45,268 bases of DNA from a virus. The stretch is from IMG/VR virus record IMGVR_UViG_3300045988_017036; one strand, written 5' to 3'. Positions 2,062-30,722 of the stretch are shown here, in pieces (the stretch's first letter is position 1; the number at the start of each line of letters is the position of its first letter). Under the pieces are notes generated by a model, which worked only from the letters and a program-made list of their open reading frames with translations, was not told the DNA's origin and made no database searches. Made by a program: the position numbers and the translations under genes.

Positions 2062-2828
2062 TGACAACACTAGGGGTTGTAAAATCGTGTGAACTCAGGG
2101 AAACTCCCTCTGGGACAATCCTGAGCCAAGCTTTTCGTAAATAACAAAACAACACAAAACATATTTCTATAAGGATAGATTATGAGACCTATTACAAATA
2201 ACTACACTGAAATCGACACCTACTTTGATAAACCTGAATATTCGATACCTGACCTAACTAAAATGTTCGGTATAAGTACACAGAGTATTCATGGGCATTG
2301 GAGGACAAAGTATGGTAGAGACAAACTGAAAGAAAGAAACCGTATTGTCAAGCATTACAAGAATGCTGGAGAGAATCATCCTAACTACGGTAAACGTGGT
2401 GCTGATGCCCCTAAGTATAAAGGTGTTATCAATGCTGACAAGGGTTACTTTATGATTTATAAACCCTCATGGTACACCGGCAGAAAGAATTGTAAGCACG
2501 TCTATCTGCATCACGTGGTTGTCTGTGAGAGACTGGGTATTTCAAAGATACCTCAAGGATGGTGTGTCCATCATTGTGACAAAGATAAATCCAATAATTC
2601 CTTTGAGAATTTAGTGTTGTTGACTCAAGGGGATCATTCAAGGCTACACGATTATTTACGAAAAGAAGGTGCAACGACTATCTCGAAAGAGAGTACACTC
2701 AAGTGGGTGGAAGCGCACGGTAAAGTTTTCAACAAAGAAGACTTTAATGATATAGTCTGTTCTATTAGGTAACTAATAGCTGTGTAAATTCACGGGGGAG
2801 GATTAACGACCCTCCCTGAACATAAAAG
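2062..2828 (+). mobile_element. group I intron 1 in nrdD (767 nt), carrying an HNH homing endonuclease ORF
   Basis: Interrupts the conserved NrdD motif KYG(N/I)PYF. The 5' exon ends in U and the intron ends in G. IGS pairing is present. The 5' core (GGGAAACTCCCTCTGGGACAATCCTGAGC at 2098) is shared with the other four introns. R element CAACGACTAT (~2673) and S element GATATAGTCTG (2749..2760) plus hairpin CTATTAG/CTAATAG lie inside or at the ORF 3' end. Confidence 0.8.
2182..2772 (+). CDS. intron-encoded HNH homing endonuclease
   Basis: HNH motif ...HHCDKDKSNNSFENLVLLTQGDHSRLH. Own RBS (AAGGATAG). Lies wholly inside the nrdD interruption. Confidence 0.8.
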   Translation: MRPITNNYTEIDTYFDKPEYSIPDLTKMFGISTQSIHGHWRTKYGRDKLKERNRIVKHYKNAGENHPNYGKRGADAPKYKGVINADKGYFMIYKPSWYTGRKNCKHVYLHHVVVCERLGISKIPQGWCVHHCDKDKSNNSFENLVLLTQGDHSRLHDYLRKEGATTISKESTLKWVEAHGKVFNKEDFNDIVCSIR

Positions 2829-3740
2829 TATTTTGCTAACTACTGCAATAGTGAACTGAAGCCTACCGATATTCGTTCTATGTGTTGCAGACTTAGACTT
2901 GACCTTAGAGAATTGCTAAAGAGAGGCAATGGGTTGTTCGGTAGTGCAGAGCAAACCGGTAGTATCGGTGTTGTCACAATCAACATGGCTAGACTAGGGT
3001 ACAAGCATAAAGGTGACAAAGAAGGTCTTTTAGTTGAACTACAGGATTTGATGGAGCTTGCTAAAGACAGTCTTGAGATCAAGCGTAAGTTTATCACTAA
3101 GATGATGGGTGAGGGACTGTATCCGTACACTAAGCGTTACCTTGGTACTTTCAGGAACTTCTTTAGTACGATCGGTGTCAATGGTATGAACGAAATGGTT
3201 CGTAACTTTACGGATGACAAAGAGGACATTACGACTGACTTTGGTGAACAATGGTGTCTTGAAGTCTTGAACTACATCCGTAAAAAGATGATTGAATTCC
3301 AAGAAGAGACTGGAAACCTATACAATCTGGAAGCTACTCCTGCTGAAGGTACAACCTATAGATTTGCTAAAGAAGACTTGAAGAGATACCCTGATATTCT
3401 TCAGGCTGGCACTAAAGAGAATCCTTACTATACGAATAGCTCTCAGTTGCCTGTAGGATTCACGGATGACCCCTTTGAGGCTCTTCTGAGACAAGAAGAG
3501 ATGCAATGTATGTACACCGGTGGCACAGTATTGCACCTGTATATTGGTGAACAGATCAGCTCTTGGGAATCCTGTAGAAACCTTGTAAGAAAGGCAGTTA
3601 CTAACTTTAAGTTGCCTTATATTTCTGTTACACCTACATTCTCCATTTGTCCTAAACATGGATACCTTGCAGGTAAACATGACCATTGTCCTTTATGTGA
3701 TAAAGAAATCATTGAAAAATATAAAGCTAAGGAGTGTTGT
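2829..3740 (+). CDS. nrdD: NrdD exon 2 (catalytic core through the Zn-ribbon; the 3' boundary is approximate and the reading frame runs to a stop codon at 3744..3746)
   Basis: In-frame continuation YFANYCNSELKPTDIRSMCCRLRLD... upstream of the ORF-track start at 2880. C-terminal segment CPKHG..HCPLC is a Zn-ribbon-like region. The glycyl-radical motif is missing from this exon and is found downstream at 4551. Confidence 0.7.
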
Positions 3741-4550
3741 AAATGATAAGTGAAGTAGATATTGAACAAAAGATTCTTAAAGAACACGCTGAAGAAAGAC
3801 AGCCTTGTGAAGTATGGTCTCGTTAACCTACTAGCGTGACCTTTTAAAAACGATGCCTAAACGGGGAAACTCTCACTGAGACAATCCCGTGCTAAACACT
3901 ATATGAGAAACCCTTGGAGGTTGATATATGATGATTGAAATCTGGAAAGACATCCCTGAATGGGAAGGACTCTATCAAGTATCTAATATGGGTAGAGTCA
4001 AGAATACTAAAAGAAACAAAGTCAAAGTCCTTGATATGAACAATGCAGGTTATCTCAGAGTCCAGCTTTGTGATAACACCAGGCGCAAGAAATACTTTAT
4101 CCATCGTCTGGTAGCCCATGCGTTTGTTGATGGTTACTTCGATGGCGCTCAGATAAATCACATTGACATGGATAGGACTAACAACTGTGCTGACAATCTT
4201 GAATGGGTAACTCCTAGTGAAAACCAAAAGAAAGCTGTGGCTATCAAAGGGTTGCACAAAGGACACTTTAAAGACGTACCTTACAAGATCACTTTTAGTA
4301 ATGGAGCTACAATCTACTTCGATAATATGCCCCTTGTCGCTAGGTCTGTTGGTCTGTCCAAGAGTCTTCTCTATTACAGACTCAACGGTAAAGACAAGGT
4401 TTATCTTAAAGAAGTCGATGGGTATCTTTCCAAGTGTAATGCCTAGAGACTATCCGCACAGCGGAGTAAGTAGCATAATGCTATTGAAACGGTATCCATA
4501 GATGATATAGTCCGAACTCATAGGCGACTATGAGATTAACATAATTGGTG
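3741..4550 (+). mobile_element. group I intron 2 in nrdD (about 0.8 kb; the 5' boundary is uncertain), carrying a NUMOD4/HNH_3 endonuclease ORF
   Basis: 5' core element GGGGAAACTCTCACTGAGACAATCCCGTGC (3863) is homologous to intron 1. R-like element AGAGACTATCCG (~4449), S element GATATAGTCCGA (4504..4515) and hairpin CTCATAG/CTATGAG. The downstream frame encodes the NrdD glycyl-radical tail. The junction 3740|4551 satisfies the U / omega-G rules and reproduces the E. coli NrdD spacing of 15 residues between the last Cys and the radical Gly. P1 is only weak (GTGACC at 3836). Confidence 0.55.
3928..4446 (+). CDS. intron-encoded HNH homing endonuclease (NUMOD4 plus HNH_3 type)
   Basis: WKDIPEWEGLYQVSNMGRVKN (NUMOD4-like) and HRLVAHAFV...INHIDMDRTNNCADNLEWVTPSENQKKA (HNH_3). 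Strong RBS GGAGG. Confidence 0.85.
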   Translation: MMIEIWKDIPEWEGLYQVSNMGRVKNTKRNKVKVLDMNNAGYLRVQLCDNTRRKKYFIHRLVAHAFVDGYFDGAQINHIDMDRTNNCADNLEWVTPSENQKKAVAIKGLHKGHFKDVPYKITFSNGATIYFDNMPLVARSVGLSKSLLYYRLNGKDKVYLKEVDGYLSKCNA

Positions 4551-5130: not shown

Positions 5131-5365
5131 AGAACTCCTAGGGTTAATCCAAGAGAAACTTTATGATGCTATGAGTAACGACTTGGATGATCCTCAAAAG
5201 CGTTCTCCACAGCTCTACAACGCTATTATTAAGGAGCTAGAACGTAATGGCATAGATTGTGTCCTTAAAGCAGGAGACGATGAAGGAAATGCTTTTAATA
5301 GCCTTCTGTTGAAGGTACAGAATACCTATAGTGAAGCAGGATATGACAATCAAGCAATCAACTAA
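5093..5365 (+). CDS. terminase small subunit (T7 gp18-like)
   Basis: 90 aa. The motif RSPQLYNAI is shared with T7 gp18. It overlaps both the holin and the large terminase gene, as in T7. Confidence 0.7.
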   Translation: MSNKKKKTTQELEELLGLIQEKLYDAMSNDLDDPQKRSPQLYNAIIKELERNGIDCVLKAGDDEGNAFNSLLLKVQNTYSEAGYDNQAIN

Positions 5366-6869
5366 TGAACTCCTTCTAGAGTATTATAATAACTTCCCAC
5401 TATTCTGTAACCTTGTATGGAAGCAAATTGGGCTACCTCAGTTGACACCTATACAAGATCAAATTGCTAAGACACTACAGAATCCTCCTAGTGACAGATA
5501 CATCATTGAAGGATTCCGTGGTGTGGCTAAGAGTTTCCTTACGTGTGCCTACTGTGTGTGGAGCTTATGGAGAGACCCACAGATTAAGGTAATGATTGTG
5601 TCAGCTAACAAAGAAAGAGCTGATGCTAATGCTATCTTCGTTAAGAAGATCATAGATGTACTGCCTTTCTTGTCTCACCTGAAGGCTAGAGAAGGACAGA
5701 GAGATACACAGAATCTCTTTGATGTTGGTCCTGCATTGCCTGACCATAGCCCTAGTGTCAAGTCTGTAGGTATCAAAGGGCAGCTTACCGGTAGTCGTGC
5801 TGATCTTCTGATCTCAGATGACGTTGAAGTTGTTCAGAATAGCTTCACTCAGGTACTCAGAGATCAACTATTCGAATATGTCAAGGAATATGATGCTGTG
5901 ATTAAGCCTAATGGTAAGATCATATATCTTGGTACTCCTCAAAATGAAATGTCTTTGTACAATGAGCTACAAGAAAGAGGCTACACCTGCATCATATTCC
6001 CTGCTAGATACCCCTATGATGACAAGTCTAGGAATAACTATGGGGATAAACTAGCTCCCTATATCGCTAAGAGATATGATAGTGATCCTAAGAAATACGC
6101 AGGGAGACCTACAGACCCCCTAAGATTCGATGAAGAAGACCTACAGAGACGTGAACTGTCTTATGGAAGAGCTGGTTTTGCTCTTCAGTTCATGCTCGAT
6201 ACAACACTCTCAGATGCCGATAGATACCCGCTCAGGCTTCAAGATTTCCTTGTGGGTATGTTTGATAGGGTAGAGGCTCCAATGAAGCTTACGTGGCTTC
6301 CTGAGGCCAGCAAAAGGCTGTCTAGCGATACTCCTACGATGGGACTTAAGGGTGACTACTTCTATTACTACAATACAGCCTCAGAAGAGATCAAAAAGTA
6401 TGACTATAAGATGATGGCAATCGATCCTTCGGGTAAGGGCAAAGATGAGTCTGCGTACTGTGTTTTGTATTATCTTAATGGTTATATTTATTTGATGGAA
6501 ACTGGAGGATTCTTAGGAGGTTATTCAGAGCCTGTCCTAAATAAACTAGCAAATATAGCTAAAAAGTATAATGTGAATGAGGTAGTCCTAGAAGGAAACT
6601 TCGGTTCAGGAATGTACACTAGACTTTTTGAACCAGTATTAAAAAAAGTATACCCTAACTGTGGCATCACAGAAGTAACTTCTAAAGGACAAAAAGAATT
6701 ACGCATCATAGATACTATAGAACCTATCTTAGGAAATCATAAACTATGTGTTACTCCCGAGTGCATACAAAAAGATTTTAATAGTGTACCGGAAGGAGAC
6801 TTTAAGTATTCATGCTTCTATCAGTTGACTAGAATCACACACGATAAGGGAGCATTGATACATGACGAT
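5331..6869 (+). CDS. terminase large subunit (T7 gp19-like), exon 1
   Basis: Strong similarity to T7 gp19 across the ATPase and nuclease domains (GFRGVAKSF..., SVKSVGIKGQLTGSRADLLISDDVEV, GALIHDD). The frame then breaks at HDD|. Confidence 0.9.
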
Positions 6870-7631
6870 AGAAGAATTTGTCGTCAATAAAACCCTTAAA
6901 TTCGGTGGAACTCTCTTTAGGAATCTAATGAGACAATACCGAGCCGAGCTTAATTGCAGGTGTAACGACTATCCGTAATGGAGTAGGTAGCAAGTGCTAT
7001 CGAAAAATGGGTGAAAAAGATATAGTCTGAACTTCATGGTGACATGAAGCATCTACATTTTACAATAGGAGAATTTCTATTATGAACAAAAATCAAAATT
7101 ATTACGAAGGTTATAATAATGTTGGTCTTCATCTGAAGGCTAATAGACTAAAAGGTAAAACTTGGCTGGTTACTTTTACAGATACAGGTAGCACACGCAA
7201 AGCAAATATAGACAACATTAAAAAAGGTAAAGTTAAAGACTTATATTATCCTTCAAGATATGGTATAGGCTATGACGGAGAATTTATCAGAGTACCTTAT
7301 TGGAGAAAAGCTAAAGATTTGTGGTCTAACATGCTAAAAAGATGTTACTTTGAAAATGATTCCAAAGGTTATTTTGGAAGATGTACAGTAGCTCCTAGAT
7401 GGCATTGCTTTGCTAACTTTTTAGAGGATATGAAAACCCTTCCTAATTTTGATAAATGGTTGAAAAACACTACCCCATACGAATTAGACAAGGACTCTAT
7501 TGTCCCTAATAATTCTGTTTACTCAAAAGACACCTGTATGTTTCTTGATAGACACACAAATAGGGCTAATGGTAAGGGTGGTAAGAAACTAGTAGATGGT
7601 TGCTGGGTAACGACCGGCAATTAACATATTG
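6870..7631 (+). mobile_element. group I intron in the large terminase gene (762 nt) with a 180-aa ORF placed 3' of the catalytic core
   Basis: Exon ...CATGACGAT ends in U. P1 is a perfect 6-bp pairing with GTCGTC (6880..6885). The core carries GGTGGAACTCTC...TGAGACAATACCGAGC, R element AACGACTATCCG (~6973) and S element GATATAGTCTGA (7019..7030) plus hairpin CTTCATG/CATGAAG. Omega G is at 7631. The spliced product reads HDD|RLDSLAIGCAYL, matching T7 HDDRLDALALGIEYL. Confidence 0.8.
7082..7624 (+). CDS. intron-encoded protein of unrecognised family (candidate homing endonuclease)
   Basis: 180-aa ORF with an RBS (AGGAGAA), located entirely inside the terminase intron, downstream of the S element. 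I see no HNH, GIY-YIG or LAGLIDADG motif. Confidence 0.55.
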   Translation: MNKNQNYYEGYNNVGLHLKANRLKGKTWLVTFTDTGSTRKANIDNIKKGKVKDLYYPSRYGIGYDGEFIRVPYWRKAKDLWSNMLKRCYFENDSKGYFGRCTVAPRWHCFANFLEDMKTLPNFDKWLKNTTPYELDKDSIVPNNSVYSKDTCMFLDRHTNRANGKGGKKLVDGCWVTTGN

Positions 7632-7841: not shown

Positions 7842-7913
7842 CACAAATCAATGTATATAAGGGTAATCCCTACTTGAATAATATAATCTTACTAATAGAA
7901 GTTAGACTAAAAA

Positions 7914-7935
7914 TAATAAAATCTGACTGTAGAAA
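7914..7935 (+). promoter_or_regulatory. phage-promoter-like motif, copy 1 (AATAAAATCTGACTGTAGAAAA)
   Basis: One member of a 7-copy conserved 22-mer family, all on the + strand in intergenic positions. Confidence 0.4.
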
Positions 7936-8139
7936 AACAAAAGTAGGGCTTTAGGTATATACAAGAGTATTGTAAAAAACTAAGGGTGTAACTTAAAGTT
8001 CCTTATAGAGGTGGTATCTTATTGTTTCCAATGTTCATTGATGATTACAATAAGGATAGTCTCTAGTAGGCTATAGAGACTTAAAGCTCCTTATAGGAGT
8101 GGTAACCTAAATGATGTAACAGATGGAGTAGGGAATAAT

Positions 8140-8289
8140 AATGATACAAAGACTCTTGTCTATCCTTAGGAATCCTAAGGTCGTACATTGGGTGAAACTT
8201 GTGGTAGTTGTGGTGTTGTTTGTGATTGCGTTGGTGAATAAAGATGTCGATCAATTACTGCAAGTTGTAACCCAAGTGCTATTACCTTG
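8140..8289 (+). CDS. possible small membrane protein (49 aa)
   Basis: ATG after GGGAATAATA. Translates to MIQRLLSILRNPKVVHWVKLVVVVVLFVIALV.... Sits alone in the non-coding region. Weak support. Confidence 0.2.
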
Positions 8290-8453
8290 AGGTACACCTA
8301 CCGGTACACCTATAGGTTTATACCTCGATTAAAAAAATTGAAAATAATTATAAGACCTCACTTAAATTTAATGAGGCGTTCATTACCCCCTGTGGGTGCC
8401 CTTGAGTATCACTAATAGATACACATGAGGGGACACTATAGGGTTTGTTCTAA

Positions 8454-8483
8454 TTGACATGTAGGGGAAGCTTATGGTATAAT
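8454..8483 (+). promoter_or_regulatory. candidate host sigma70 early promoter (TTGACA-18-TATAAT)
   Basis: Perfect -35 and -10 hexamers at 8454..8459 and 8478..8483. However, the -10 lies inside a long hairpin followed by T8 (8463..8500). Confidence 0.35.
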
Positions 8484-8647
8484 CATAGGTTTCCCCTTTT
8501 TTTTATCTAGGTATAGTGGTTAGACTCTAGGTTGATACTATAGGTTGTAGCTATAGGTGATATATCTGTACAACCTATAGTATTACCTACAAATAAGTAA
8601 TAGTATTACCTACAGTTGATTACAGGGTTATTCCTTAGCTACCGGTG

Positions 8648-8676
8648 TTGACATTGTGATTAACTTGTGGTATCAC
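8648..8676 (+). promoter_or_regulatory. candidate sigma70 promoter (TTGACA-17-TATCAC)
   Basis: Consensus -35 with a moderate -10. Confidence 0.3.
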
Positions 8677-8752
8677 ACGTGCGTACTGACATAAAGGAAA
8701 TAGGGACATCTATACGGTTACTTATGGTTTACAATTTTTTACACTCTAGGTC

Positions 8753-8781
8753 TTGACAATGGGGTTTTAGTGCTTTACTAT
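8753..8781 (+). promoter_or_regulatory. candidate sigma70 promoter (TTGACA-17-TACTAT)
   Basis: Consensus -35 with a 5/6 -10. Oriented toward the early genes. Confidence 0.3.
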
Positions 8782-9044
8782 TCGAGGCATGGAAAACAAA
8801 CAAACATTTGGTTTCCAAAGTTCTTTAAAAATTTGGATATTTGCTAGACACTTATAAAGCTTATGGATGCTTTATAGAGATAGACCAAAATAGTAGGCTA
8901 TCCGAGTGTACTAGGTGCTAAGATAGAGTAGGCTCTAGCATGATTCTCCTTCGCTATTCCCTAGGTAAACCTAGGGTCTAGCCTAAAGGTTACAACTAAG
9001 TGACCTTTAGGGTAGAAAAACAACCAAGTGTTGGGAGAAAAATC

Positions 9045-17365: not shown

Positions 17366-18196
17366 TTGGTTAACCATACGATTAATGACACCACGACTAT
17401 TCAGGGTCAGTCTATCGCTACGGTGATTGCAGATACGGTTTATAAAGGTTCTCGTATCACGACTCTTGAATTGGTCTATCCTCGATACATTCATAGTGAG
17501 TTTATGACTCACCGAATGTTTAGCCGTAATGCTTCTTCTAGCCGTGCTATTCCTATCGAAAAGATAGTGAATGAGGTACTTACTGACCCTGTAGGTTTCG
17601 ACTATGTAGGATTCAATCAGTCTGGCATGGTGGCTGCTGAAGAACTCCCTGAAGATTTGAAAGAAGATTTTCTTGCTGAGTGGAAACTTTGGGGTATGCA
17701 GACGGCTCTTAAAGTCAAACTGTGGGCTAAGAAGTACAACATCCATAAGCAAACCTTGAATCGAGCTTTGGAACCTTGGAGTCGAATTAAGGTACTTGTA
17801 ACTGCAACTGAGTGGGACAATTTCTTTAAGCTTCGACTGGCACCGGATGCACAACCTGAGATTCAGAATTTAGCTAAGGCTATGAAGTCAGCTATGAATG
17901 CTTCTACACCGGTAGAGTCTAAGATGCACTTGCCCTATGTTGATCTGACAGATCGTGAGCCTGAGTATACTGACATGTATCACTCTGTAGCTCGTTGTGC
18001 CCGTGTGTCGTACAACAATAACGGGGGTACTACGAGTACGCTTGAAGAAGACAAGAAGCTGTTTGAACGTCTTCAAAATAATGGGCATTGGTCTCCCTTT
18101 GAGCATACTGCTGAGTTCGTAGGTGACAATGATATGCACGCTAATTTCTACAACTGGCGGTCTCTTCGAAAGGTCTATGAACTAGCCGGAGTATAA
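17366..18196 (+). CDS. thyX: flavin-dependent thymidylate synthase ThyX
   Basis: ThyX signature motif RHRxxSxNxxSxR is present (THRMFSRNASSSRAIP). TTG start with RBS GGAG. Confidence 0.85.
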   Translation: MVNHTINDTTTIQGQSIATVIADTVYKGSRITTLELVYPRYIHSEFMTHRMFSRNASSSRAIPIEKIVNEVLTDPVGFDYVGFNQSGMVAAEELPEDLKEDFLAEWKLWGMQTALKVKLWAKKYNIHKQTLNRALEPWSRIKVLVTATEWDNFFKLRLAPDAQPEIQNLAKAMKSAMNASTPVESKMHLPYVDLTDREPEYTDMYHSVARCARVSYNNNGGTTSTLEEDKKLFERLQNNGHWSPFEHTAEFVGDNDMHANFYNWRSLRKVYELAGV

Positions 18197-18204
18197 TAAC
18201 TGAT

Positions 18205-18278
18205 TGGGGTATAGCTCAATGGCAGAGCACTTGGCTTTGACCCAAGGGATGTAGGTTCAATTCCTGCTGCCCCTGCCA
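18205..18278 (+). tRNA. tRNA-Gln (anticodon UUG)
   Basis: Cloverleaf. D arm GCTC-AATGGCA-GAGC. Anticodon arm CTTGG-CTTTGAC-CCAAG. T arm GTAGG-TTCAATT-CCTGC. Unpaired 1:72 position, G73 and CCA, as in bacterial tRNA-Gln. Confidence 0.75.
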
Positions 18279-18290
18279 ACAGGAGACATT

Positions 18291-18485
18291 ATGCTACACA
18301 CTTACAGAGATGCAATTACCGGTAAAGTCTATCAGGTATACGATGATGAGCCTCCTGATCGTGATGATCCTGAAGAAGACGAGGAGGAATCAGACGAAGA
18401 CTTTGACCTTGACGATTCTGTATATCAGGCTTATGAACGAGAGCTAGAGCGTTATTACTCTTGGTTATACAGAGATAGATGGTGA
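18291..18485 (+). CDS. small highly acidic protein
   Basis: 64 aa, with a DDEPPDRDDPEEDEEESDEDFDLDD stretch. Confidence 0.5.
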   Translation: MLHTYRDAITGKVYQVYDDEPPDRDDPEEDEEESDEDFDLDDSVYQAYERELERYYSWLYRDRW

Positions 18486-18602
18486 AGAGTGTCCTAGTTA
18501 GTCCTGCTGAGTGTGTACAAACAAAGTAGGATAAAGAAGACTATATCGAAGGTCTGGACGGATATAGCGCACGAAGTTCTTCTGGGTTTTTCATTCGTGC
18601 AT

Positions 18603-18678
18603 TGTTTTCTCCTTGAAAACTTTGTTTTCTCCTTGAAAACTTTGTTTTCTCCTTGAAAACGTTGTTTTCTCCTTGACG
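18603..18678 (+). repeat. tandem direct repeats, 3.8 copies of a 20-bp unit (TTGTTTTCTCCTTGAAAACT)
   Basis: Directly visible at 18603, 18623 and 18643, with a partial copy at 18663. Followed by a strong hairpin. Confidence 0.9.
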
Positions 18679-18725
18679 TAGGGGCTATCTTAGAGTTATA
18701 CTCTAGGGTAGCCCCATTTTTTTAA
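18679..18725 (+). terminator. stem-loop plus U-tract (factor-independent terminator-like)
   Basis: GGGGCTATCTTAGAG...CTCTAGGGTAGCCCC forms a 15-bp stem (two G-U pairs), then ATTTTTTTTAAATTT. Confidence 0.55.
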
Positions 18726-18737
18726 ATTTGTAACAAT

Positions 18738-20381
18738 ATGAGAGCCAATCGTTTCATTAGTCATCTACCATGTCCTAATTGTGGTAGTCACGATGCACTA
18801 GCAGTATATTCTGATGGTCATGGTTATTGTTTTAGCTGTAATACATACTACAAAAATACAGACAAGGAGGAAATAGTGTCTGACAATACAAACACCTCAG
18901 AGTCTAAGTTTGAACTCGTAGAGATCGGAGTGTTGAACTATGAGGCTCTACCGGCTAGAAAGATCACAAAGGAAACCTGTCAGAAGTATGGTTATCTTTG
19001 TGGGGAATACAAAGGAAAACCTGTTCAGATTGCTTGCTATTATGATTCAAAGGGCAATTGTGTTGGTCAAAAGCTACGTTTTAAAGACAAAGGATTTGCT
19101 GTTAAGGGTAAGATTAGTAACATACTTTTTGGTTCTCAGCTTTGGAGCAGTGGTAAGAAGATCGTAATCACAGAAGGTGAGATTGATTGTCTTACTGTGA
19201 GTCAGCTACAGGGAAACAAATGGCCTACTGTAAGTATTCCTAATGGTGCCCAAGCAGCTAAGAAAGCTATTGAGGCTAACCTAGAGTATCTGAACAACTT
19301 CGAAGAGATCATCCTGATGTTTGACATGGATGAAGCTGGACGTAAAGCTATCGAAGAGTGTGTTGATGTGTTGCCTGTAGGTAAAGCCTATGTAGCTAAC
19401 CTACCAATGAAAGACCCTAATGAATGTCTTGTTAATGGTAAGGGTGATGCTGTCATTCAGGCAATCTGGAATGCTAAACCATACAGACCTGATGGAATTG
19501 TAGCAGGTACCGATCTTTATGAAAAGTGTGTAACTGATATAGATGACTTAAAGGATAGTGTACCGTATCCTTTTGAGGCATTGAACAACAAAACTAAAGG
19601 AGCTAGGCATGGCGAACTTTATGTCATCACGAGTGGAAGTGGTATGGGAAAATCTACTTTACTCAGGGAGCTTGAATTTTATTTTGGACAAACGGAAAAC
19701 TGCGGAATCGTTGCTCTTGAAGAAAGTAATAGAACGACTGGACTTGAACTCATGTCTCTCTATTGTAACAGAAGACTCCGACTGTACCCTGAGGCTGTCT
19801 CTGAATCGGAACGATCAGATGCTTTTAGTGCAACTATTGGGAATGGAAGGTATTTCTTGTACGACCACTTTGGCTCGCTTGATAGCAGCAATTTGTTGTC
19901 TAAGATTAGGTACCTGATTGTTGGCTTAGGTTGCAAACGAATCTTTCTGGATCACATTTCTATTGTTGTCTCTGGCATGGACAATGTGGATGATGGTGGG
20001 GAACGAAAGGCAATTGACAAACTGATGACTAACCTTCGTTCTCTGGTAGAAGAGACAGGTTGTACAATGTTTGTGGTGTCTCACCTGAAGAGACCTGAAG
20101 GTAAGGGACACGAAGAAGGAGGAAAAGTCTCTCTCAGTCAACTCAGAGGCTCTGGTGGTATTGCACAGTTAGCCGACATGGTGATTGGCTTAGAGAGAAA
20201 TCAACAAGGTAAGAATCCTAATGTTCTTACTATTCGCCTATTAAAAAATCGCTTTTCAGGCGAAACTGGTGTCTCTGGTTATATGTATTATGATTCAGAG
20301 ACTGGACGTTTAAGTGACTATAAAGGAGATATTGAAAGTGACTATGGATTCACTCAAGAGCAAGCTTCTGGAGATTTTTAA
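18738..20381 (+). CDS. DNA primase/helicase (T7 gp4-like)
   Basis: N-terminal Zn ribbon CPNCGSHDALAVYSDGHGYCFSC. TOPRIM region. Walker A GSGMGKST. Helicase motifs conserved with T7 gp4. Confidence 0.95.
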   Translation: MRANRFISHLPCPNCGSHDALAVYSDGHGYCFSCNTYYKNTDKEEIVSDNTNTSESKFELVEIGVLNYEALPARKITKETCQKYGYLCGEYKGKPVQIACYYDSKGNCVGQKLRFKDKGFAVKGKISNILFGSQLWSSGKKIVITEGEIDCLTVSQLQGNKWPTVSIPNGAQAAKKAIEANLEYLNNFEEIILMFDMDEAGRKAIEECVDVLPVGKAYVANLPMKDPNECLVNGKGDAVIQAIWNAKPYRPDGIVAGTDLYEKCVTDIDDLKDSVPYPFEALNNKTKGARHGELYVITSGSGMGKSTLLRELEFYFGQTENCGIVALEESNRTTGLELMSLYCNRRLRLYPEAVSESERSDAFSATIGNGRYFLYDHFGSLDSSNLLSKIRYLIVGLGCKRIFLDHISIVVSGMDNVDDGGERKAIDKLMTNLRSLVEETGCTMFVVSHLKRPEGKGHEEGGKVSLSQLRGSGGIAQLADMVIGLERNQQGKNPNVLTIRLLKNRFSGETGVSGYMYYDSETGRLSDYKGDIESDYGFTQEQASGDF

Positions 20382-20532
20382 GATTATCATCAACGCACCT
20401 GTATTGGGAATTCTCTGGGCTACTGACACCTGTCCTCCTGAAGAAGAGGGGAATAAGAAGTTGTTTGCCTACGTTGGTAATCTTCTGGTTCTCTGGGTGT
20501 TTATCATTGCTTGTATTGTAGGGTTGTGGTAA
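20338..20532 (+). CDS. small membrane protein (hypothetical)
   Basis: GTG or ATG start after AAAGGAG. C-terminal TM segment LLVLWVFIIACIVGLW. Overlaps the end of the helicase gene. Confidence 0.35.
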   Translation: MTMDSLKSKLLEIFKIIINAPVLGILWATDTCPPEEEGNKKLFAYVGNLLVLWVFIIACIVGLW

Positions 20533-20567
20533 CATAACATAGGCAAAACTATAGGAGGGTATAGGAA

Positions 20568-22346
20568 ATGCTGAACGACAGTGAAAAACTGATTGATTAC
20601 ACAACAAAGAAATACTTAATCACAGACATTGAGACGAATGGTTTGTTAGATACTGTCTCAAAGTTCTGGTGTGCTTGGTGCTATGACTATGAGCGTAAGT
20701 CATACATTGGATTCAAAGACATTGATCTTTATGTTGCCTATCTGGAAGATGCTGTAGATAAAGGTTATCGTCTGGTCTATCACAATGGAATTAAATATGA
20801 CATACCTGCATTAAAGAAGATCATGGGTAGAGACTTGAAGTTCAACCCAAGGGAATGTGTCGTTGATACTCTTGTCTTAGCTAGGCTCATCTACACACAG
20901 ATTAAGGACATTGATATTGGCTTGATTAAGTCCGGCAGACTCCCTAAGAAACTCTATGGCTCTCACTCATTGAAAGCTTGGGGTTATCGTCTGGGAATCT
21001 TGAAGGGAACTTACGGTGAACAAGAAGAAGCTTGGAATCAATTCTCAGAAGAGATGTACGAATACTGTAAGCAGGACGTTGCAGTTACTCTAGAACTCTT
21101 CTCTTTGTTGTTTAAGAAGCAATATCCTGTATCCTCCATTGAGCTTGAGCATAGCATTGCTTGGGTGATGGCTAAACAGGAACGCAACGGGTTTGTCTTT
21201 GACTATGATAAAGCGGTTACTCTTTATGCTACTCTTAGTGCTAAACGTAGTGAGATTGAAGATAAACTTGTGAAGACTTTTGGCTCATGGGAGAAATACA
21301 TTGGAGACAAAATCTACAAAAGAGACAACGCTAAACGAGGGATTGTTGCTGGCGTACCTTACCCACAGTATGAAACGGTGGTTTTCAACCCTAGCAGCCG
21401 TGAGCATATTGCTAAAGTCCTTATGGAAAGGGGGTGGACTCCGACAGTATTCACAGAAACAGGAAAACCTAAAGTAGACGAAGAGACTCTACAGTCTGCT
21501 ATGGATATACCGGAAACAAAGCTAATCCTTGAATACTTGTTGATACAGAAGCGTATCTCTCAGTTAGCTGAGGGTGATTTTGCTTGGCTGAAGATGGAGA
21601 AGAAAGATGGTGATGGTATCCATAGAATTCACGGTAGCGTTAATCCTAACGGGACTGTTACTGGTCGTGCATCTCATAGCTTCCCTAATGTTGCACAAGT
21701 TCCTGCGGGACATTCAGAATATGGAAAGGAATGCAGGGAGCTTTTTAGAGTACCTGAAGGATGGTACGAATGTGGCATTGACGCTTGTGGACTTGAGTTG
21801 CGTTGCCTTGCTCATTTCCTTTATCCATATGATAAGGGTGAGTACGGTGATATTATCTTAAATGGTGACATCCATACGCATAACCAACAGCTTGCTGGGT
21901 TACCTACTCGTGACATGGCGAAGACATTTTGTTATGGACTTTTGTACGGAGCTGGCAATGAGAAGATCGGTTCAATCATTGGTGGTAGTGCTGCTGAAGG
22001 TAAAGCTTTGAAAGACAAGTTTATGAAGGGACTACCGGCATACAAGAAGTTAACTAAAGCTATCCACAATGCCTTGGTAGAAGATGAGAGGTTTATAGGT
22101 GGTAAAAACATTGTTAAATGGCGTAAGAGATTCCATCGTGATAATCCTAGTCTTGATATTACTCATAGTCTCATTGGTCTTGATGGTCGCATTCTTTATT
22201 GTCGCTCTCCCCATAGCGCTCTTAATCTACTGCTTCAGTCCGCAGGTGCGCTCGTCTGTAAGCAGTGGGTGGTCTTCTGGGAAGAAGGAATGAGAGCTAG
22301 AGGTTTCGATCATCACAACGACTTTAGGTTGCAAGCTTGGGTGCAT
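20568..22346 (+). CDS. DNA polymerase (T7 gp5 family), exon 1
   Basis: Exonuclease and polymerase motifs collinear with T7 gp5 (ITDIETNGL, KQERNGF, RIHGSVNPNGTVTGRASHSFPNVAQ, LELRCLAHF, KTFCYGLLYGAG, SPHSALNLLLQSAGAL). The frame breaks after ...QAWVH. Confidence 0.9.
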
Positions 22347-22973
22347 AACCTTTCACATTGTGCACGTTAAACTAGGTTAATTCGGTGAAGCCCCACGAGG
22401 GTAATACCGAGCTAAACATGGAGGAAACTATGCGTGGTAAACCGTTAATCTTTACTACCACTAAAGACGGTTGCATAGTTTCTACCTCACACAGACTCAA
22501 TCAAGATGGGTATCTCAGAGTGAGAGACCCTAGTTATAGAGGCTCTGGTCGTGCTCCACTTGTCATGTATCATCGTTACGTTTGGGAATACTTGAAAGGT
22601 TCTATTCCTGAATGTAAGGAGATACATCATAAGTGTCACAATCGAGCCTGCTGTAACATAGATCATCTGGAATTGATTGATATTGTCGAACATAAGTGTG
22701 AACATAATCACACTAGGTATAAGAATAGAAAAGATGAAGCTTATGCCTATTGGTTAGACAATAAAGATATTTCCGGTACTGATCTAGGTGAGCTGTTCGG
22801 AGTCTCTTTTTCTACTGGTTGTAGGTGGATAAGAGAATGGAAGTGTAGAGACTAGGAATATTCCGTAGGGGCTATGGGTGAAACTCCCATAGTCTCGAAA
22901 TGCCTAGCACAGCTAATACCAATAGGCTGTGAAGATATAGTCCGACACCCGTAGTAATATGGGAAACAGTAGG
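22347..22973 (+). mobile_element. group I intron in the DNA polymerase gene (627 nt), carrying an HNH endonuclease
   Basis: The exon ends TGGGTGCAT, with a perfect 6-bp P1 to GTGCAC (22361..22366). R-like element AGAGACTAGG (~22845). S element GATATAGTCCGA (22934..22945) plus hairpin CCCGTA/TATGGG. Omega G at 22973. The spliced product reads ...AWVH|DEIQVACRTKEIA, matching T7 AWVHDEIQVGCRTEEIA. Confidence 0.8.
22418..22855 (+). CDS. intron-encoded HNH homing endonuclease
   Basis: HHKCHNRACCNIDHLEL HNH motif. ATG at 22418, within track ORF 22385..22855. Confidence 0.8.
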   Translation: MEETMRGKPLIFTTTKDGCIVSTSHRLNQDGYLRVRDPSYRGSGRAPLVMYHRYVWEYLKGSIPECKEIHHKCHNRACCNIDHLELIDIVEHKCEHNHTRYKNRKDEAYAYWLDNKDISGTDLGELFGVSFSTGCRWIREWKCRD

Positions 22974-23129
22974 GATGAAATTCAGGTTGCTTGTCGCACT
23001 AAAGAGATTGCTGATGCTTGTGTAGAGATTGCACAGGAAGCTATGAGAAAGACTCAGGAACACTTTAAGTTTAACTGTCAGTTGGATACCGAAGGAAAGA
23101 TCGGGCATAACTGGATGGAATGTCACTAA
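22974..23129 (+). CDS. DNA polymerase exon 2 (C-terminal 51 aa)
   Basis: DEIQVACRTKEIADACVEIAQEAMRKTQEHFKFNCQLDTEGKIGHNWMECH aligns with the C-terminus of T7 gp5. Not in the ORF track, presumably because the stand-alone ORF falls below the size cut-off. Confidence 0.85.
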   Translation, partial: DEIQVACRTKEIADACVEIAQEAMRKTQEHFKFNCQLDTEGKIGHNWMECH

Positions 23130-23139
23130 GGAGAAAACT

Positions 23140-23376
23140 TTGAGTACAGAACCTAGATATATTCACATTGAATTTAATCATAATAACGATGGCCGTATTG
23201 GAGCTACAGTAAAGAAACTCCTAAAGGATGGAACTAAAGAGATACTGTTATTTCCTGACCAAGATATTACTATAGAAGAAATGTACTTTGATGTCTTTAT
23301 GAACCTATTTCCTAAAATTGAATTTATGATTGATGAGGTTTACGAAGAAGAAAAGGAGGAGGACACCAATGAATAA
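23140..23376 (+). CDS. hypothetical protein
   Basis: TTG start after AAGGAGAAAAC. 78 aa. Confidence 0.45.
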   Translation: MSTEPRYIHIEFNHNNDGRIGATVKKLLKDGTKEILLFPDQDITIEEMYFDVFMNLFPKIEFMIDEVYEEEKEEDTNE

Positions 23377-23602
23377 TCTTGTAGAAATTCTTTTGTATAT
23401 CCAAGAGTTTTCTCCTAAGCTTCAGAGTGATTTCGCTAGAGAAGAAGCTAAGGTTGTAGCTGAAGCAGCATCTAGAGGGTTGATCTCTTCTCTGGACTTC
23501 TGTGGGTTTGCTACGAATCGTTGGCACTTGACATCTAAGGGTGTTAAGCTTCTTCAACTATTCCAACATGAAGGGAATACAAATGAAAAGAATCTTGATT
23601 GA
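23369..23602 (+). CDS. hypothetical protein
   Basis: ATG after AAAAGGAGGAGG. 77 aa. Confidence 0.45.
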   Translation: MNNLVEILLYIQEFSPKLQSDFAREEAKVVAEAASRGLISSLDFCGFATNRWHLTSKGVKLLQLFQHEGNTNEKNLD

Positions 23603-24395
23603 TGCTGATATTCTGTGCTACAGATCAGCTTCAGCAGTACAAAGAGATATTGATTGGGGGGATGGCCTATATACTTGTCATGCCTATTTGTCTGATGCTG
23701 AAGATCAATTATATAGTACCCTTCAAGATATTGAAGATAAACTACATGGATATGGTTATGATATAAATAAAGACTATAAGTGGATATTCTGTTTCTCTGG
23801 TAAGAATACCTTTAGAAAGAATATAAACTCTGAATATAAATCTAATAGAGTTAATCATCGTAAACCAACTTGTTATTATGCTTTGGTTGAATCTCTAAAG
23901 TCTTCTTTAACTGGTGATCGTTGTACCTGGATGGAAGAAGATAGTTTAGAGGGTGATGATCTTATAGGTATCCTTGGTACTTTAAACGACAATGATTATA
24001 GTATTATAGTCTCTATGGATAAAGACTTTAAGACTATTCCTTGTAGTTATTTAAACTTCTCTAATGGTGAACTATACGTTAATGATTGGAAGTATGTAAA
24101 TGCTTTCAATAATATTATGTATCAAACCATGAAGGGAGACGTAGTGGATGGCTATAAGGGAGCTAAAGGTTATGGAGACAAGAAAGCTATGTCTCTTATT
24201 AAGAAGTATGAAAATAAACCTTTAGAACTCTGGAATGCTGTAGTTAAAGAAGCTTTTAAGGATAATCTAGAGGAAGCTCTTATGAACTACCGTATGGCTC
24301 ACCTGTTGTGGAATGGAGAGTATGACTTTGAGAAACACACAGTCATCTTTAAGACACCTGAAGAGCTTACCAATAGTTTCTATGGTCAACATTAA
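23583..24395 (+). CDS. 5'-3' exonuclease (T7 gp6-like)
   Basis: MKRILIDADIL..., CDKDFKTIP and GDVVDGYKG motifs match T7 gene 6 exonuclease. Confidence 0.85.
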   Translation: MKRILIDADILCYRSASAVQRDIDWGDGLYTCHAYLSDAEDQLYSTLQDIEDKLHGYGYDINKDYKWIFCFSGKNTFRKNINSEYKSNRVNHRKPTCYYALVESLKSSLTGDRCTWMEEDSLEGDDLIGILGTLNDNDYSIIVSMDKDFKTIPCSYLNFSNGELYVNDWKYVNAFNNIMYQTMKGDVVDGYKGAKGYGDKKAMSLIKKYENKPLELWNAVVKEAFKDNLEEALMNYRMAHLLWNGEYDFEKHTVIFKTPEELTNSFYGQH

Positions 24396-24416
24396 TAATA
24401 AAATCTTACAATAGAG
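24394..24416 (+). promoter_or_regulatory. phage-promoter-like motif, variant copy 6a (AATAATAAAATCTTACAATAGAG)
   Basis: Variant with TTAC in place of TGACTG. Overlaps the exonuclease stop codon. Confidence 0.35.
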
Positions 24417-24428
24417 TAATGACTAAAA

Positions 24429-24450
24429 ATAATAAAATCTTACAGAAGAT
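24429..24450 (+). promoter_or_regulatory. phage-promoter-like motif, variant copy 6b (AATAATAAAATCTTACAGAAGA)
   Basis: Tandem with copy 6a, directly upstream of RBS AAAAGGAGG. Confidence 0.35.
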
Positions 24451-24469
24451 AAAAGGAGGACTTTAGGTT

Positions 24470-27956: not shown

Positions 27957-28121
27957 ATGGCAGCTCTTAATGATAATTCTATTTCCAATCCTGGTCAACA
28001 ACTGAGTACTGGTGATCGCCGTGCGTTGTTCCTGAAGATTTTTGCAGGTGAAGTTCTGACGGCTTTTGCTCGTACCACGGTTATGATGGACAAGCATATT
28101 GTCCGAACCATTAACTACGGT
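27957..28121 (+). CDS. major capsid protein (T7 gp10-like), exon 1 (55 aa)
   Basis: MAALNDN...RRALFLKIFAGEVLTAFARTTVMMDKHIVRTINYG matches T7 gp10A residues ~20-75 (KLALFLKVFGGEVLTAFARTSV...HMVRSISSG). Confidence 0.85.
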
Positions 28122-28762
28122 AATTGATTTGCTGTAGTAAAACTCTTTTAATTGCTGGGAACTCCTATAGATAGGACAATCAGCAGCTAAGACTAACCGA
28201 AAGGTAGTAAAGTTCAACGACTAGTTTTTATAACGTAGGTATCAAGTGATACCGAAATGGAGAGATATATTATTATGAGCGAAAGCACCGAGATGGGCTT
28301 TAAGGAGTGCAAACTCTGCAAACAGGTTAAACCTTTGTCAGAGTTCTACTATAGAAAAGATAGCAAAGACTATCGTGCTGAGTGCAAGCAATGCAGGAAA
28401 AACTATGAACGTCTTAAAAAGACTGGATGGTCTCCTGAAGCTTATGAGTATGCTTGGTATCATCAGAATGGTAAGTGTGCTATATGTGGTTGTGAGTTAG
28501 GCTCTAGTAGATATACTAAACCTGCCGCAGATCACGATCATAAGACGGGTAAACTTAGAGGTATTCTCTGTACTCAATGCAATACAGCTTTAGGTCTTAT
28601 GAAAGATTCTCCTTATAGGCTTGAGTCCGCGATTCGTTATTTAGAAGAACACGGAAATAATATATAAGATATAGTCTGATCTCATAGGTAACTATGAGCC
28701 GTCTAGGGTGGGAACCTAGATGGAGCTACGGGGTAACGCCTGTAGTGAAACATGAGGCAACG
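28122..28762 (+). mobile_element. group I intron in the major capsid gene (641 nt), carrying an EndoVII-type HNH endonuclease
   Basis: The exon ends ACTACGGT, with P1 to GCTGTA (28131..28136). Core carries GGGAACTCC...GGACAATCAGCAGC, classic R element GTTCAACGACTAG (~28214) and S element GATATAGTCTGA (28668..28679) plus hairpin CTCATAG/CTATGAG. Omega G at 28762. The spliced product reads TINYG|KSASFPVMGRT, matching T7 SISSGKSAQFPVLGRT. Confidence 0.85.
28257..28667 (+). CDS. intron-encoded HNH endonuclease (His-Me finger with Zn-binding Cys pairs)
   Basis: CKLC...CKQC...CAIC...DHDHKTGKLRGILCTQCNTALG. The start is probably ATG at 28275 after GGAGAG. Confidence 0.85.
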   Translation: MERYIIMSESTEMGFKECKLCKQVKPLSEFYYRKDSKDYRAECKQCRKNYERLKKTGWSPEAYEYAWYHQNGKCAICGCELGSSRYTKPAADHDHKTGKLRGILCTQCNTALGLMKDSPYRLESAIRYLEEHGNNI

Positions 28763-29572
28763 AAATCCGCCTCGTTCCCTGTTATGGGTCGTACTCATGC
28801 TAAGTACCTTGAACCCGGCAATAGCTTGGACGATCAACGTAAGAAGATGGAACACACCGAGAAGGTCATCGAGATCGATGGTCTTCTTACGGCTGACTGC
28901 TTGATTACTGATATTGACGAAGCAATGAACCACTATGATGTGCGTTCTGAATACTCTCGTCAACTTGGTGAAGCTCTTGCTCAGGCTGCTGACTGTGCTG
29001 TTATCAATGAACTTGCTAATCTGGCAGCTAAGAAGACTGCTGGTATGCAAGAAAATATTCCTGCAAACTCTACTCTTAAAAACCCCGGTACGGGTAAGGC
29101 TTTTGAATTTGTTACCGGTATGGACGAAGCTCAATCCGCAGCTTATGGCAATAAGTTGCTTGAAGGTCTGATTGCTGCTCGTGCTGCATTTACCCGTAAC
29201 TATGTGCCTCAGGCTGATCGTTACTTCTTGACGACTCCTGAAGGTTACTCTGCTATTCTCCGTGCGTTGATGCCTGATGCGGCTAACTATGCGGCTCTCT
29301 TTGACCCGTCTAGCGGTCGCTTGATGAATGTTGCTGGCTTCCAAATTATCGAAGTTCCGCACTTCATTAACGATGGTGTTGACAGCAAGCACACCCTCAA
29401 GGCACAACTTACGACTGCTGTGTTGCAAGGTATTGTCTTCCATCGTTCCGCTGTGGGTACTGTGAAGCTCCGTGATCTTGCTATGGAACAAGCACGTAGA
29501 GCTGAATATCAGGCAGATCAAATCATTGCCAAGTACGCGATAAACAAAACCTGTCGCGTTAATCTTTTCTAA
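28763..29572 (+). CDS. major capsid protein, exon 2
   Basis: KSASFPVMGRTHAKYLEPGNSLDDQRK...HRSAVGTVKLRDLAMEQARRAEYQADQIIAKYA is collinear with T7 gp10A. The spliced protein would be about 324 aa. Confidence 0.9.
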   Translation, partial: KSASFPVMGRTHAKYLEPGNSLDDQRKKMEHTEKVIEIDGLLTADCLITDIDEAMNHYDVRSEYSRQLGEALAQAADCAVINELANLAAKKTAGMQENIPANSTLKNPGTGKAFEFVTGMDEAQSAAYGNKLLEGLIAARAAFTRNYVPQADRYFLTTPEGYSAILRALMPDAANYAALFDPSSGRLMNVAGFQIIEVPHFINDGVDSKHTLKAQLTTAVLQGIVFHRSAVGTVKLRDLAMEQARRAEYQADQIIAKYAINKTCRVNLF

Positions 29573-29641
29573 ATAACGGGAAAGCATAAGCTAACCCGAT
29601 TGAAGCTATATAACTCAAAAACAGTATAGGAGATATACAAA

Positions 29642-30705: not shown

Positions 30706-30722
30706 CAATTAATAAACTATAA

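Follow-up and report, generated by a model that had tools for sequence, protein, structure and literature searches.

Locus and genome layout

The window analyzed here, meaning the whole 45,268-nucleotide stretch of IMG/VR virus record IMGVR_UViG_3300045988_017036, is the genome of an uncultured human-gut phage. It encodes a T7-type single-subunit RNA polymerase (RNAP) at 10415-13069 and carries a repeated intergenic motif of about 20 to 23 bp, which, judged from its sequence, is very probably a promoter set read by the phage's own polymerase. A preliminary description had proposed a phage-RNAP promoter family. The proposal is sustained by the encoded cognate RNAP, the T7-like promoter layout, strict orientation, conservation footprints, and covariation of the motif with the specificity loop of the enzyme.

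The two contig ends (1-85 and 45184-45268) are identical over 85 nt, which indicates a circularly closed assembly and a complete T7-like phage genome of ~45.2 kb. The + strand carries all substantial open reading frames (ORFs) of the genome, and PHROG and Pfam searches of the window proteins recognized a T7-like gene set; an 8-kb megablast against a phage collection returned no match. The junction of the contig ends falls amid the late genes, and the terminase gene, normally the last in a T7-like genome, ends at 7841, so the assembly is circularly permuted. The terminase gene is an undivided ORF in relative L001 and is split in the window by a 760-nt HNH-bearing insertion, its final exon stopping at 7841. 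Given the permutation and the position of the terminase, the late block runs from 24470 through 45183/1 to 7841, a span of ~28 kb. The genome end probably lies somewhere beyond 7841, with the true ends (terminal repeat) between 7841 and 8454; the contig of relative L002 stops near the equivalent of window position 8470. The genes recognized are as follows.

10415-13069, + strand: T7-type single-subunit RNA polymerase gene, 884 aa
Other T7-like genes, + strand: gp2.5-like single-stranded DNA-binding protein, endonuclease I, amidase
Replication genes, + strand: thymidylate synthase, primase/helicase, DNA polymerase
23541-24395, + strand: exonuclease gene
Virion genes, + strand: portal, scaffold, capsid, tail tube A and B, large virion and fibre proteins
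5331-6890, + strand: large terminase gene, recognized together with nrdD

Motif copies and their statistical support

Eight copies of the motif were located, all on the + strand. Sequences are given with a slash before the predicted start, and scores refer to the position weight matrix (PWM) described below.

7877-7901, + strand: tandem member, TTAC variant AATAATATAATCTTACTAATAGAAG, with a 1-nt spacing difference, after the terminase gene
7915-7937, + strand: candidate promoter copy AATAAAATCTGACTGTA/GAAAAA, 33.2 bits, 74 nt past the stop of the final terminase exon
10273-10295, + strand: candidate promoter copy AATAAAATCTGACTGTA/AGAGAG, 30.4 bits, 120 to 142 nt upstream of the RNAP start codon
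13071-13093, + strand: candidate promoter copy GATAAAATCTGACTGTA/AGAAAA, 32.3 bits, starting 2 nt past the RNAP stop
15338-15360, + strand: candidate promoter copy AATAAAATCTGACTGTA/AGAATA, 32.0 bits, containing the TAA of ORF 14887-15342
17099-17121, + strand: candidate promoter copy TATTAAATCTGACTGTA/AGAAGA, 28.2 bits, containing the TAA of ORF 16646-17104
24397-24419, + strand: first member of the late pair, TTAC variant AATAAAATCTTACAATA/GAGTAA, 24.0 bits, starting 2 nt past the exonuclease stop
24431-24453, + strand: second member of the late pair, AATAAAATCTTACAGAA/GATAAA, 26.0 bits, without TA at -2/-1

The 20-mer AATAAAATCTGACTGTAAGA, with up to 3 mismatches allowed, matches at 7915, 10273, 13071, 15338, and 17099, always on the + strand; these 5 matches stand against 0.01 expected, and 5 were reached in none of 100 shuffles. 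The five consensus copies read AATAAAATCTGACTGTA/AGA. The shorter 12-mer ATAAAATCTKAC is exact at 7916, 10274, 13072, 15339, 24398, and 24432 and has a single mismatch at 7881 and at 17100. A PWM derived from the seven sites of the preliminary description was scanned over both strands and gave these sites 24 to 33 bits, while the next best site genome-wide on either strand reached 13.0 bits; maxima in shuffled genomes averaged 12.5 bits and went up to 19. The seven copies are therefore real, their coordinates being revised by 0 to 3 nt, and the count has risen to eight, because a further copy (7877-7901) lies 14 nt upstream of the 7915 copy and forms a tandem pair with it. The ortholog of this 7877 site in close relatives (L001 and L020) is a good copy, AATAAAATCTTACTATAAGAA, at 23.4 bits. 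The copies at 7877, 24397, and 24431 constitute the TTAC variants.

The ORF table and the sequence bear out the earlier statements that all copies are on the + strand and intergenic, with stop-codon overlap and a short distance to the next start. The stop codon of the upstream ORF lies inside the motif at 15338 and 17099 and 1 to 3 nt before it at 10273, 13071, and 24397. The 15338 copy has a 29-nt leader to the ATG at 15384, the 17099 copy lies upstream of a tRNA-like element and the thymidylate synthase gene, and the 24431 copy directly precedes a ribosome-binding site (AAGGAGG) and the ATG at 24470. A multicopy, co-oriented, intergenic motif of ~20 to 23 bp, as is typical of T7-type promoters, is thus present in eight copies, all on the + strand. 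The motif is laid out as an AT-rich AATAA (-17 to -13), AATCTGAC (-12 to -5), TGTA (-4 to -1), and a purine-rich start, which by inspection and by core identity is the layout of a T7-type promoter.

The motif sequence was not found in the literature searched (paper texts, without supplements). In IMG/VR, the exact 16-mer occurs in multiple copies only in contigs of three close relatives; the other matches are mostly isolated singles on otherwise unlinked contigs and look like chance, and the one examined (L083) has no similarity to the window. Three further sites within the window were considered and rejected as copies or related promoters: the exact 11-mer ATCTGACTGTA found within the tail-tube B gene (31713) has no AT-rich block and stays under 8 bits; an intergenic site at 9959 scores 13.0 bits, which is noise level; and GGGACACTATAGGG at 8431, with a T7/SP6-like core, is conserved in no relative and is taken as chance.

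Stop-codon overlap and the strong hairpins nearby (10326-10372 and 13106-13144) could be understood if the motif acted in RNA, serving the 3' ends of the genes upstream as a site of processing or termination. Folding of the motif itself is inconsistent, however, with -0.8 to -4.8 kcal/mol in 6 of 7 copies, and the hairpins lie downstream of it, differ by copy, and are missing from 15338 (z = -1.6) and 24397 (z = -0.3), so that we attach next to no probability to this explanation. Promoters for the host RNAP, with sigma-70 or an alternative sigma factor, could likewise account for intergenic repeats: CTGACT matches TTGACA at 4 of 6 positions, and sigma-70-type signals occur elsewhere (8454 and 8753). 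Yet the sequence 17 bp past CTGACT is not conserved between copies, and hence no -10 element is shared. The lack of a consistent structure rules out an RNA hairpin signal, and the lack of a common -10 rules out a sigma-70 promoter.

The polymerase and its predicted promoter-reading loops

The RNAP belongs to PHROG 414 (E = 5e-260), and its residues 8-883 align to T7 RNAP structures (E ~1e-194). It is 39% identical to T7 RNAP and 34% identical to SP6 RNAP, ~40% identical to the enzymes of cultured phages, and 52 to 56% identical to those of human-faecal contigs. Residues D537, K631, Y639, H784, and D812 (T7 numbering) are all invariant. A cognate T7-type enzyme with intact catalytic residues, an AT-rich recognition loop, and a specificity loop is thus encoded beside the motif copies. 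Two of its elements concern promoter reading.

10688-10708, + strand: codons of the basic loop GRPGKRH (residues 92-98), aligned to T7 AT-rich recognition loop residues 93-101
12590-12730, + strand: codons of the specificity loop (residues 726-772)

The specificity loop has 15 extra residues relative to T7, T3, and SP6 (15 to 17 across the gut clades), placed after the second strand. This insertion is common to gut clades down to 48% identity and is absent from the 41% relative (L038). It is predicted to form an additional beta-hairpin, giving the loop four strands: the AlphaFold model (mean pLDDT 79; 74 to 82 at the loop) places strands at 727-737, 742-746, 749-753, and 758-771. Residues N733 and K735 align with T7 R746 and N748, and the window residues at the T7 R746/N748/R756/Q758 positions are N/K/T/I. 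PhageProm, which mines T7-like RNAP-promoter pairs from repeated motifs in genomes encoding single-subunit RNAPs, reported that 91% of T7-like pairs combine R746 with C at -7 and that subregion III is CACTA in more than 50% of promoters (PMC11880802). With N733 and K735 in place of R746 and N748, the pair described here falls outside that dominant T7-like code. An EM1 RNAP paper (PMC9596486) was also consulted and set aside, its enzyme and promoter being unrelated.

Covariation of motif and specificity loop across lineages

The comparison drew on ~80 loci in total: 70 IMG/VR loci with RNAP relatives, four intermediate-relative loci from a large protein collection, and the late loci of the three closest relatives. 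One locus, L071 (MT835557), gave no clear motif by k-mer counting and was left out.

Among relatives ~90% identical to the window, the motif and ~10 downstream bases are kept as a footprint, while the immediate flanks carry indels and substitutions. The footprint is clearest at 17099, 13071, and 10273, and at 17099 the motif is intact with indels on both flanks. The late tandem pair is conserved base for base in surroundings that are 85 to 92% identical, except that L073/L108 have G instead of T at the variable position of the pair (24431 site).

At greater distances, each of ten RNAP lineages has its own internally homogeneous motif at the same syntenic sites. The motifs are listed by RNAP identity to the window enzyme.

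97% (window clade): AATAAAATCTGACTGTA/AGA
82%: AATAAAAACTGACAaTA/GGA
68%: AATAAAAkGATAsTTTA/GGAAAA
65%: ATAAAATTACsATAAA/GGA
61%: GTACTATT/GGAGAAA
~57%: AATAAAATCCATACTCCTA/GGGAGA
~54% (a): AATAAAACGTACACTAGTA/GAGAGA
~54% (b): CAATTAGTGTACGCTAGTA/GAGAGA
48%: ATAAAACCCACaTTACCAGA
41%: AATAAACCATCACAATA/GGAGAC

Nearly all of these share the order AT-rich block, specific block, TA or AA, and GGA to GAGA; the 48% class cannot be placed in this register. A formal count over six classes put 225 seeds on the + strand and 2 on the - strand in ~830 kb. Motifs that are uniform inside each genome yet replaced from lineage to lineage at fixed sites argue for a trans-acting reader. Specificity loops are near-identical within a motif class and different between classes, in a one-to-one match, so that motif and specificity loop covary across the ten lineages.

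In several cases individual residues go with individual bases, and some of the contact rules known from T7 hold here too. Arg at the R746 position accompanies C at -7 in T7, T3, L038, and L106, and all five non-Arg lineages have another base there. Asp at the N748 position accompanies CC at -11/-10 in T3 and L038. The window has K735 with T at -10, against N with A at -10 in the 82% relative, and T7 likewise pairs N748 with A at -10. These correlations are suggestive and fall short of proof, the lineages being related to one another and the +1 register uncertain by 1 to 2 nt in some classes.

The same data bear on whether another phage DNA-binding protein, such as a regulator or a replication or packaging factor, might bind the motif. 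Concerted evolution by itself shows only that some trans-acting reader exists, and several early ORFs (9000-10270) have no recognizable family. The sequence and layout are nevertheless specifically those of the T7 group, the sites occupy annotated T7 promoter positions, and the motif class changes with the RNAP specificity loop, down to residue/base pairs familiar from T7. Strict co-direction with the genes (225:2) would be unneeded by a symmetric operator, and the motif has no dyad symmetry. We therefore judge such a protein to be a very improbable reader. For the host-promoter explanation the lineages are equally telling: related phages, presumably in similar gut hosts, carry wholly different motifs at the same sites, a pattern that fits a phage-encoded reader and does not fit a conserved host sigma factor, and we regard that explanation as scarcely credible.

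A proposed transcription program

On the reading that the motif serves the phage polymerase, we infer start sites, promoter strengths, timing, and terminator roles from the positions of the copies and of the following additional elements.

8454-8781, + strand: putative sigma-70-like early promoters, identified as consensus matches (TTGACA-18-TATAAT with TG at 8454-8483; TTGACA at 8648; TTGACA-17-TACTAT at 8753-8781), the number of matches in this region not exceeding the shuffle expectation
10326-10372, + strand: hairpin with a 19-bp stem in the leader between the 10273 copy and the RNAP gene (leader minimum free energy -35.6, z = -7.25)
13106-13155, + strand: hairpin and U-run in the leader of the 13071 copy (z = -5.09)
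30722-30763, + strand: hairpin and T-run between the capsid region and tail-tube gene A, found by sequence inspection

By analogy to T7, the GRPGKRH loop would read the AATAAAA block in the minor groove, through AATAA at about -17 to -13; the specificity loop (726-772) would read AATCTGAC, at about -12 to -5, in the major groove; and TGTA (-4 to -1) would be melted. RNA would start at the purine after GTA, which is A in four copies and G at 7915, with a register of ±1 nt.

Host polymerase would start at the sigma-70-like promoters at ~8.45 to 8.8 kb, transcribe the small early genes and the RNAP gene, and probably halt at the 13106-13155 hairpin/U-run. The newly made phage RNAP would then use 10273 to amplify its own gene and 13071, 15338, and 17099 to transcribe the DNA-metabolism genes and tRNAs. 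The pair at 24397/24431 alone would drive the ~28-kb late block as one read-through unit, with partial attenuation at the hairpin that follows the capsid gene, and the pair at 7877/7915, placed after the last late gene, would carry transcription over the genome end or concatemer junction and on into the early region, in the manner of T7 phiOR/phiOL. The result is a candidate transcription map for the phage, consisting of a host-driven early region, a self-amplifying RNAP gene, three middle promoters, a late tandem pair, and a genome-end pair.

In the region of L002 equivalent to the putative early promoters, there are five copies of GGTTGACATTGTGG. The 10326-10372 hairpin is possibly a processing or stabilizing site of the RNase III type; T3 has an annotated RNase III site, R1, in the equivalent place. 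At 13106-13155 the hairpin arms and the T-run are kept in relatives while the loop differs, and this element is possibly a terminator of host-polymerase early transcription like T7 TE. The 30722-30763 hairpin would be Tphi-like, T7 Tphi lying 48 nt past gene 10 and just before gene 11; it was not listed by the terminator scan because its loop exceeds 8 nt.

Confidence in the promoters differs between the two groups of copies. There is little doubt that the five consensus copies are phage-polymerase promoters, and the TTAC variants are probably active as well. The alternative, which we hold to be unlikely, is that only the five CTGACTGTA copies work and that the TTAC variants are decayed duplicates or replication or packaging signals near the genome end; the late genes would then be transcribed from an unrecognized promoter class, by the host polymerase, or by read-through from 17099. 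The variants do differ from the consensus at -7 and at -4 to -1, the 24431 copy lacks the TA found in most lineages, the spacer GACTAAAAAT common to both tandem modules points to module duplication, and a strong hairpin and T-run (18681-18715) lie between 17099 and the late genes. What speaks for active variants is the base-for-base conservation of the late pair amid 85 to 92% identity, together with the presence in classes B and C1 of a copy in their own dialect at the same exonuclease/gp6.5 junction, the T7 phi6.5 position. Moreover, G and T toggle at a single site (L073), the AA at -4/-3 and the G at +1 of 24397 match the consensus of the 82% relative (ACAATA/GG), and no other repeated motif was found in the late intergenic spacers.

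The late block itself was examined through the PWM scan, which found no motif copy in its ~28 kb. This agrees with the earlier observation that no copy lies past 24450, now restated because the late block wraps the contig junction to 7841. Portal and scaffold genes are 19 nt apart, and no motif occurs in the 59 nt that precede the capsid gene. In the three close relatives, the phi6.5-like pair is likewise the only one over the following ~18 kb, save for an extra copy in L001 and L020. These two carry, upstream of nrdD, a two-gene module (L001, 2386-3632; L020, ~940-1420) with its own promoter copy, GATTTAATCTGACTGTAAGA at 23.7 bits in L001 and AATAAAGACTTACAATAGAT at 12.1 bits in L020. The window keeps only the last ~40 nt of this module, at the ~946/952 junction, and has thereby lost the only late-block promoter seen in this clade. 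The search with tail-tube B returned late regions of class A only; the other classes were covered to +10 kb from the RNAP gene.

Several points weigh against assigning the motif to the phage polymerase, or against parts of that assignment. The canonical contact code is not found: the enzyme has N733, the -7 base is G (T in the variants), and subregion III reads GACTG, matching CACTA at 3 of 5 positions. Since the R746 to -7 C rule is broken, T7 contact rules are not simply transferable to this pair. Classes C1 and C2 have Arg at the corresponding residue yet no C at -7 in the register used, and covariation across lineages is confounded by shared ancestry. A start at A is predicted in 4 of 5 consensus copies, whereas T7-type enzymes usually prefer G; T7 phi2.5 also starts with A. 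The three TTAC variants differ at -7 and at -4 to -1, and 24431 has no TA, so they could be weak or inactive. Finally, T7 has internal promoters (phi9, phi10, phi13, and phi17) where the 28-kb late block has none, and a second late promoter class, hidden from motif scans, may be present.

A stronger form of the proposal is possible, though we consider it rather doubtful. It holds that the specificity element has been rebuilt, with four strands owing to an extra hairpin of 15 to 17 residues and with neither Arg746 nor Asn748, so as to have a recognition code unlike those of T7, T3, and SP6; that the ten lineages would form a natural set of polymerase/promoter pairs orthogonal to one another; and that a late block of ~28 kb, broken up by several self-splicing introns, would be transcribed from a single variant tandem pair.

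Introns, tRNAs, repeats, and host-related features

Six segments of the window are absent from ~90%-identical relatives (2061-2827, 3824-4547, 6873-7631, 22347-22973, 28121-28774, and 29542-30433). Each carries an HNH or endonuclease VII ORF, and together they interrupt nrdD, the post-nrdD region, the large terminase gene, the 3' end of the DNA polymerase gene, and, twice, the capsid gene. Rfam recognizes a full group I intron at 28075-28698 (62.5 bits) and sub-threshold matches at 2586-2779 and 22669-22964 (36 bits), and a GATATAGTCYG repeat is the intron core common to the segments. This mobile intron and homing endonuclease load is unusually high for a 45-kb phage. Repeat family D14 (ATGATATAGTCTG..., at 2747, 4502, and 28666, one copy abutting the capsid ORF) was considered as a late promoter class and rejected, being the group I intron core GATATAGTC; this identification is based on the same Rfam matches and on the absence of the D14 segments from close relatives.

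Two tRNA genes, Arg(TCT) and Gln(TTG), lie at 15797-15889 and 18205-18278. A third, tRNA-like element at 17223-17344 matches the Rfam tRNA model at 37.6 bits and tmRNA weakly, ARAGORN making no call; it lies ~105 nt downstream of the start predicted for 17099. Between the 17099 copy and the replication genes, at 18582-18715, four tandem 20-nt repeats (TTGTTTTCTCCTTGAAAAC) are immediately followed by a hairpin with a 16-bp stem and a T-run, with the primase/helicase gene coming just after; the arrangement may represent an iteron-like origin or a regulated terminator. At 8454-8497, the perfect sigma-70 consensus overlaps a hairpin with a 16-bp stem and T8, the -10 element lying in the hairpin loop, an arrangement that may be linked to the genome end. 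The tandem modules at 7877-7937 and 24394-24453 share promoter cores and the spacer (T/A)(A/T)GACTAAAAAT, suggesting that the whole tandem unit of ~60 nt has been duplicated, one copy lying at the genome end and the other where the late genes start.

In-frame repeats of 30 and 33 nt form arrays (41256-42248) within the 969-aa gene at 40544-43453, whose product is probably a tail fibre or spike containing a repetitive stretch of coiled or beta-helical structure. Within the late block, the anaerobic ribonucleotide reductase gene nrdD (985-3746) stands between the fibre genes and the terminase gene; it is intron-split in the window and intact in relatives (661 to 679 aa), in which it is followed by a glutaredoxin-like ORF. 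Its presence is consistent with an anaerobic gut host. A host in the Bacteroidota is made less likely by the strong Shine-Dalgarno sites and the sigma-70-like early promoters.

Comparison with known polymerase-promoter systems

The window shares with T7 and T3 the ~23-bp promoter layout, co-oriented intergenic copies, and a homologous polymerase whose catalytic and recognition elements are the same. The placement had been called that of T7-type promoters, and the copies indeed match annotated T7 and T3 positions after the RNAP, exonuclease, and terminase genes. The 13071 copy begins 2 nt past the RNAP stop, where T7 phi1.1A/B lie 26 and 101 nt after gene 1 and T3 phi1.05 lies 12 nt after it. 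The 24397/24431 pair, between the exonuclease gene and small gp6.5/6.7-like genes (one weakly gp6.7-like), holds the position of T7 phi6.5. The 7877/7915 pair is 36 to 74 nt past the terminase stop, compared with 99 nt after the gene 19 stop for T7 phiOR, and ~520 nt upstream of the sigma-70-like matches at 8454, 8648, and 8753, as T7 phiOL precedes host promoters A1 to A3. By this analogy, it would be a phiOR/phiOL-like pair beside the genome end and not an ordinary early-region promoter. The same three T7-like positions are filled in other classes by their own motifs, and in classes B and C a syntenic counterpart of the 15338 copy lies after the amidase gene.

Differences from T7 are found in number, distribution, and sequence. 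T7 has 17 promoter copies against eight in the window. T7 phi9 and phi10, before the scaffold and capsid genes, have no window counterparts, and neither do T7 phi13 and phi17. The divergent copies are the late-gene ones in the window, whereas the T7 late promoters are the consensus ones. The specificity block is AATCTGAC in the window and ACGACTCA in T7, position -7 is G or T with N in the window and C with R746 in T7, and most window copies have a probable A start, unlike T7. An ungapped comparison with the T7 core (-9 to -1) nonetheless finds 7 of 9 positions identical (CTCACTATA in T7, CTGACTGTA in the window). Over 23 positions, ungapped identity is 10 to 15 for T7, 12 to 15 for T3, and 10 to 13 for SP6. 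An echo of the SP6/K11 core had been noted in the tail of the motif. A ...GAC...TA.GAAG flavour and a purine-rich start are indeed shared, but the alignment needs a 1-nt gap, and the motif is no closer to SP6/K11 than to T7/T3 (10-13/23 vs. 10-15/23), as is also true of the RNAP (34% vs. 39%). Membership in an SP6/K11 subgroup is thus not indicated.

The copy upstream of the RNAP gene (10273) was previously regarded as atypical. It is unusual in relation to the classical phages, T7 and T3 having no counterpart and SP6 no consensus promoter upstream of its RNAP gene, but it is conserved within its own lineage and has a precedent. A copy 100 to 200 nt upstream of the RNAP gene is present in 4 of 4 loci of class A, 22 of 25 of B, 9 of 9 of C2, 3 of 3 of D, and 1 of 1 of E, in 1 of 5 of C1 at the seed stringency used, and also in L104-L107. 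The precedent is LUZ100, a T7-like Pseudomonas phage in which eight phage-specific promoters were mapped by ONT-cappable-seq; one of them, phi1, immediately precedes the RNAP gene, for which positive feedback was proposed (PMC10134795). The LUZ100 promoter motifs are unrelated to those of the window, and its sites were mapped experimentally, whereas the window's are predicted from sequence. LUZ100 has this arrangement in association with a MarR/integrase lysogeny module (PMC10134795). The early ORFs of the window gave no Pfam or PHROG hits, MarR and integrase domains included, which is weak evidence as these ORFs are small and fast evolving; no integrase was found, and the window thus shares the promoter upstream of the RNAP gene with LUZ100 and not the MarR/integrase association.

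The pairs mined by PhageProm have the same four-subregion layout, and their specificity is tied to the specificity loop, termed "Region3" (PMC11880802). Judged from its sequence, the element described here behaves as a T7-type promoter outside the canonical recognition code. The kind of promoter is textbook; the motif sequence is previously undescribed and the polymerase loop unusually built. The approximately ten naturally diverged polymerase/promoter pairs are candidate orthogonal transcription systems, and those that lie outside the dominant Arg746 to C(-7) rule and carry the loop hairpin offer a test of how far the T7 recognition code reaches.

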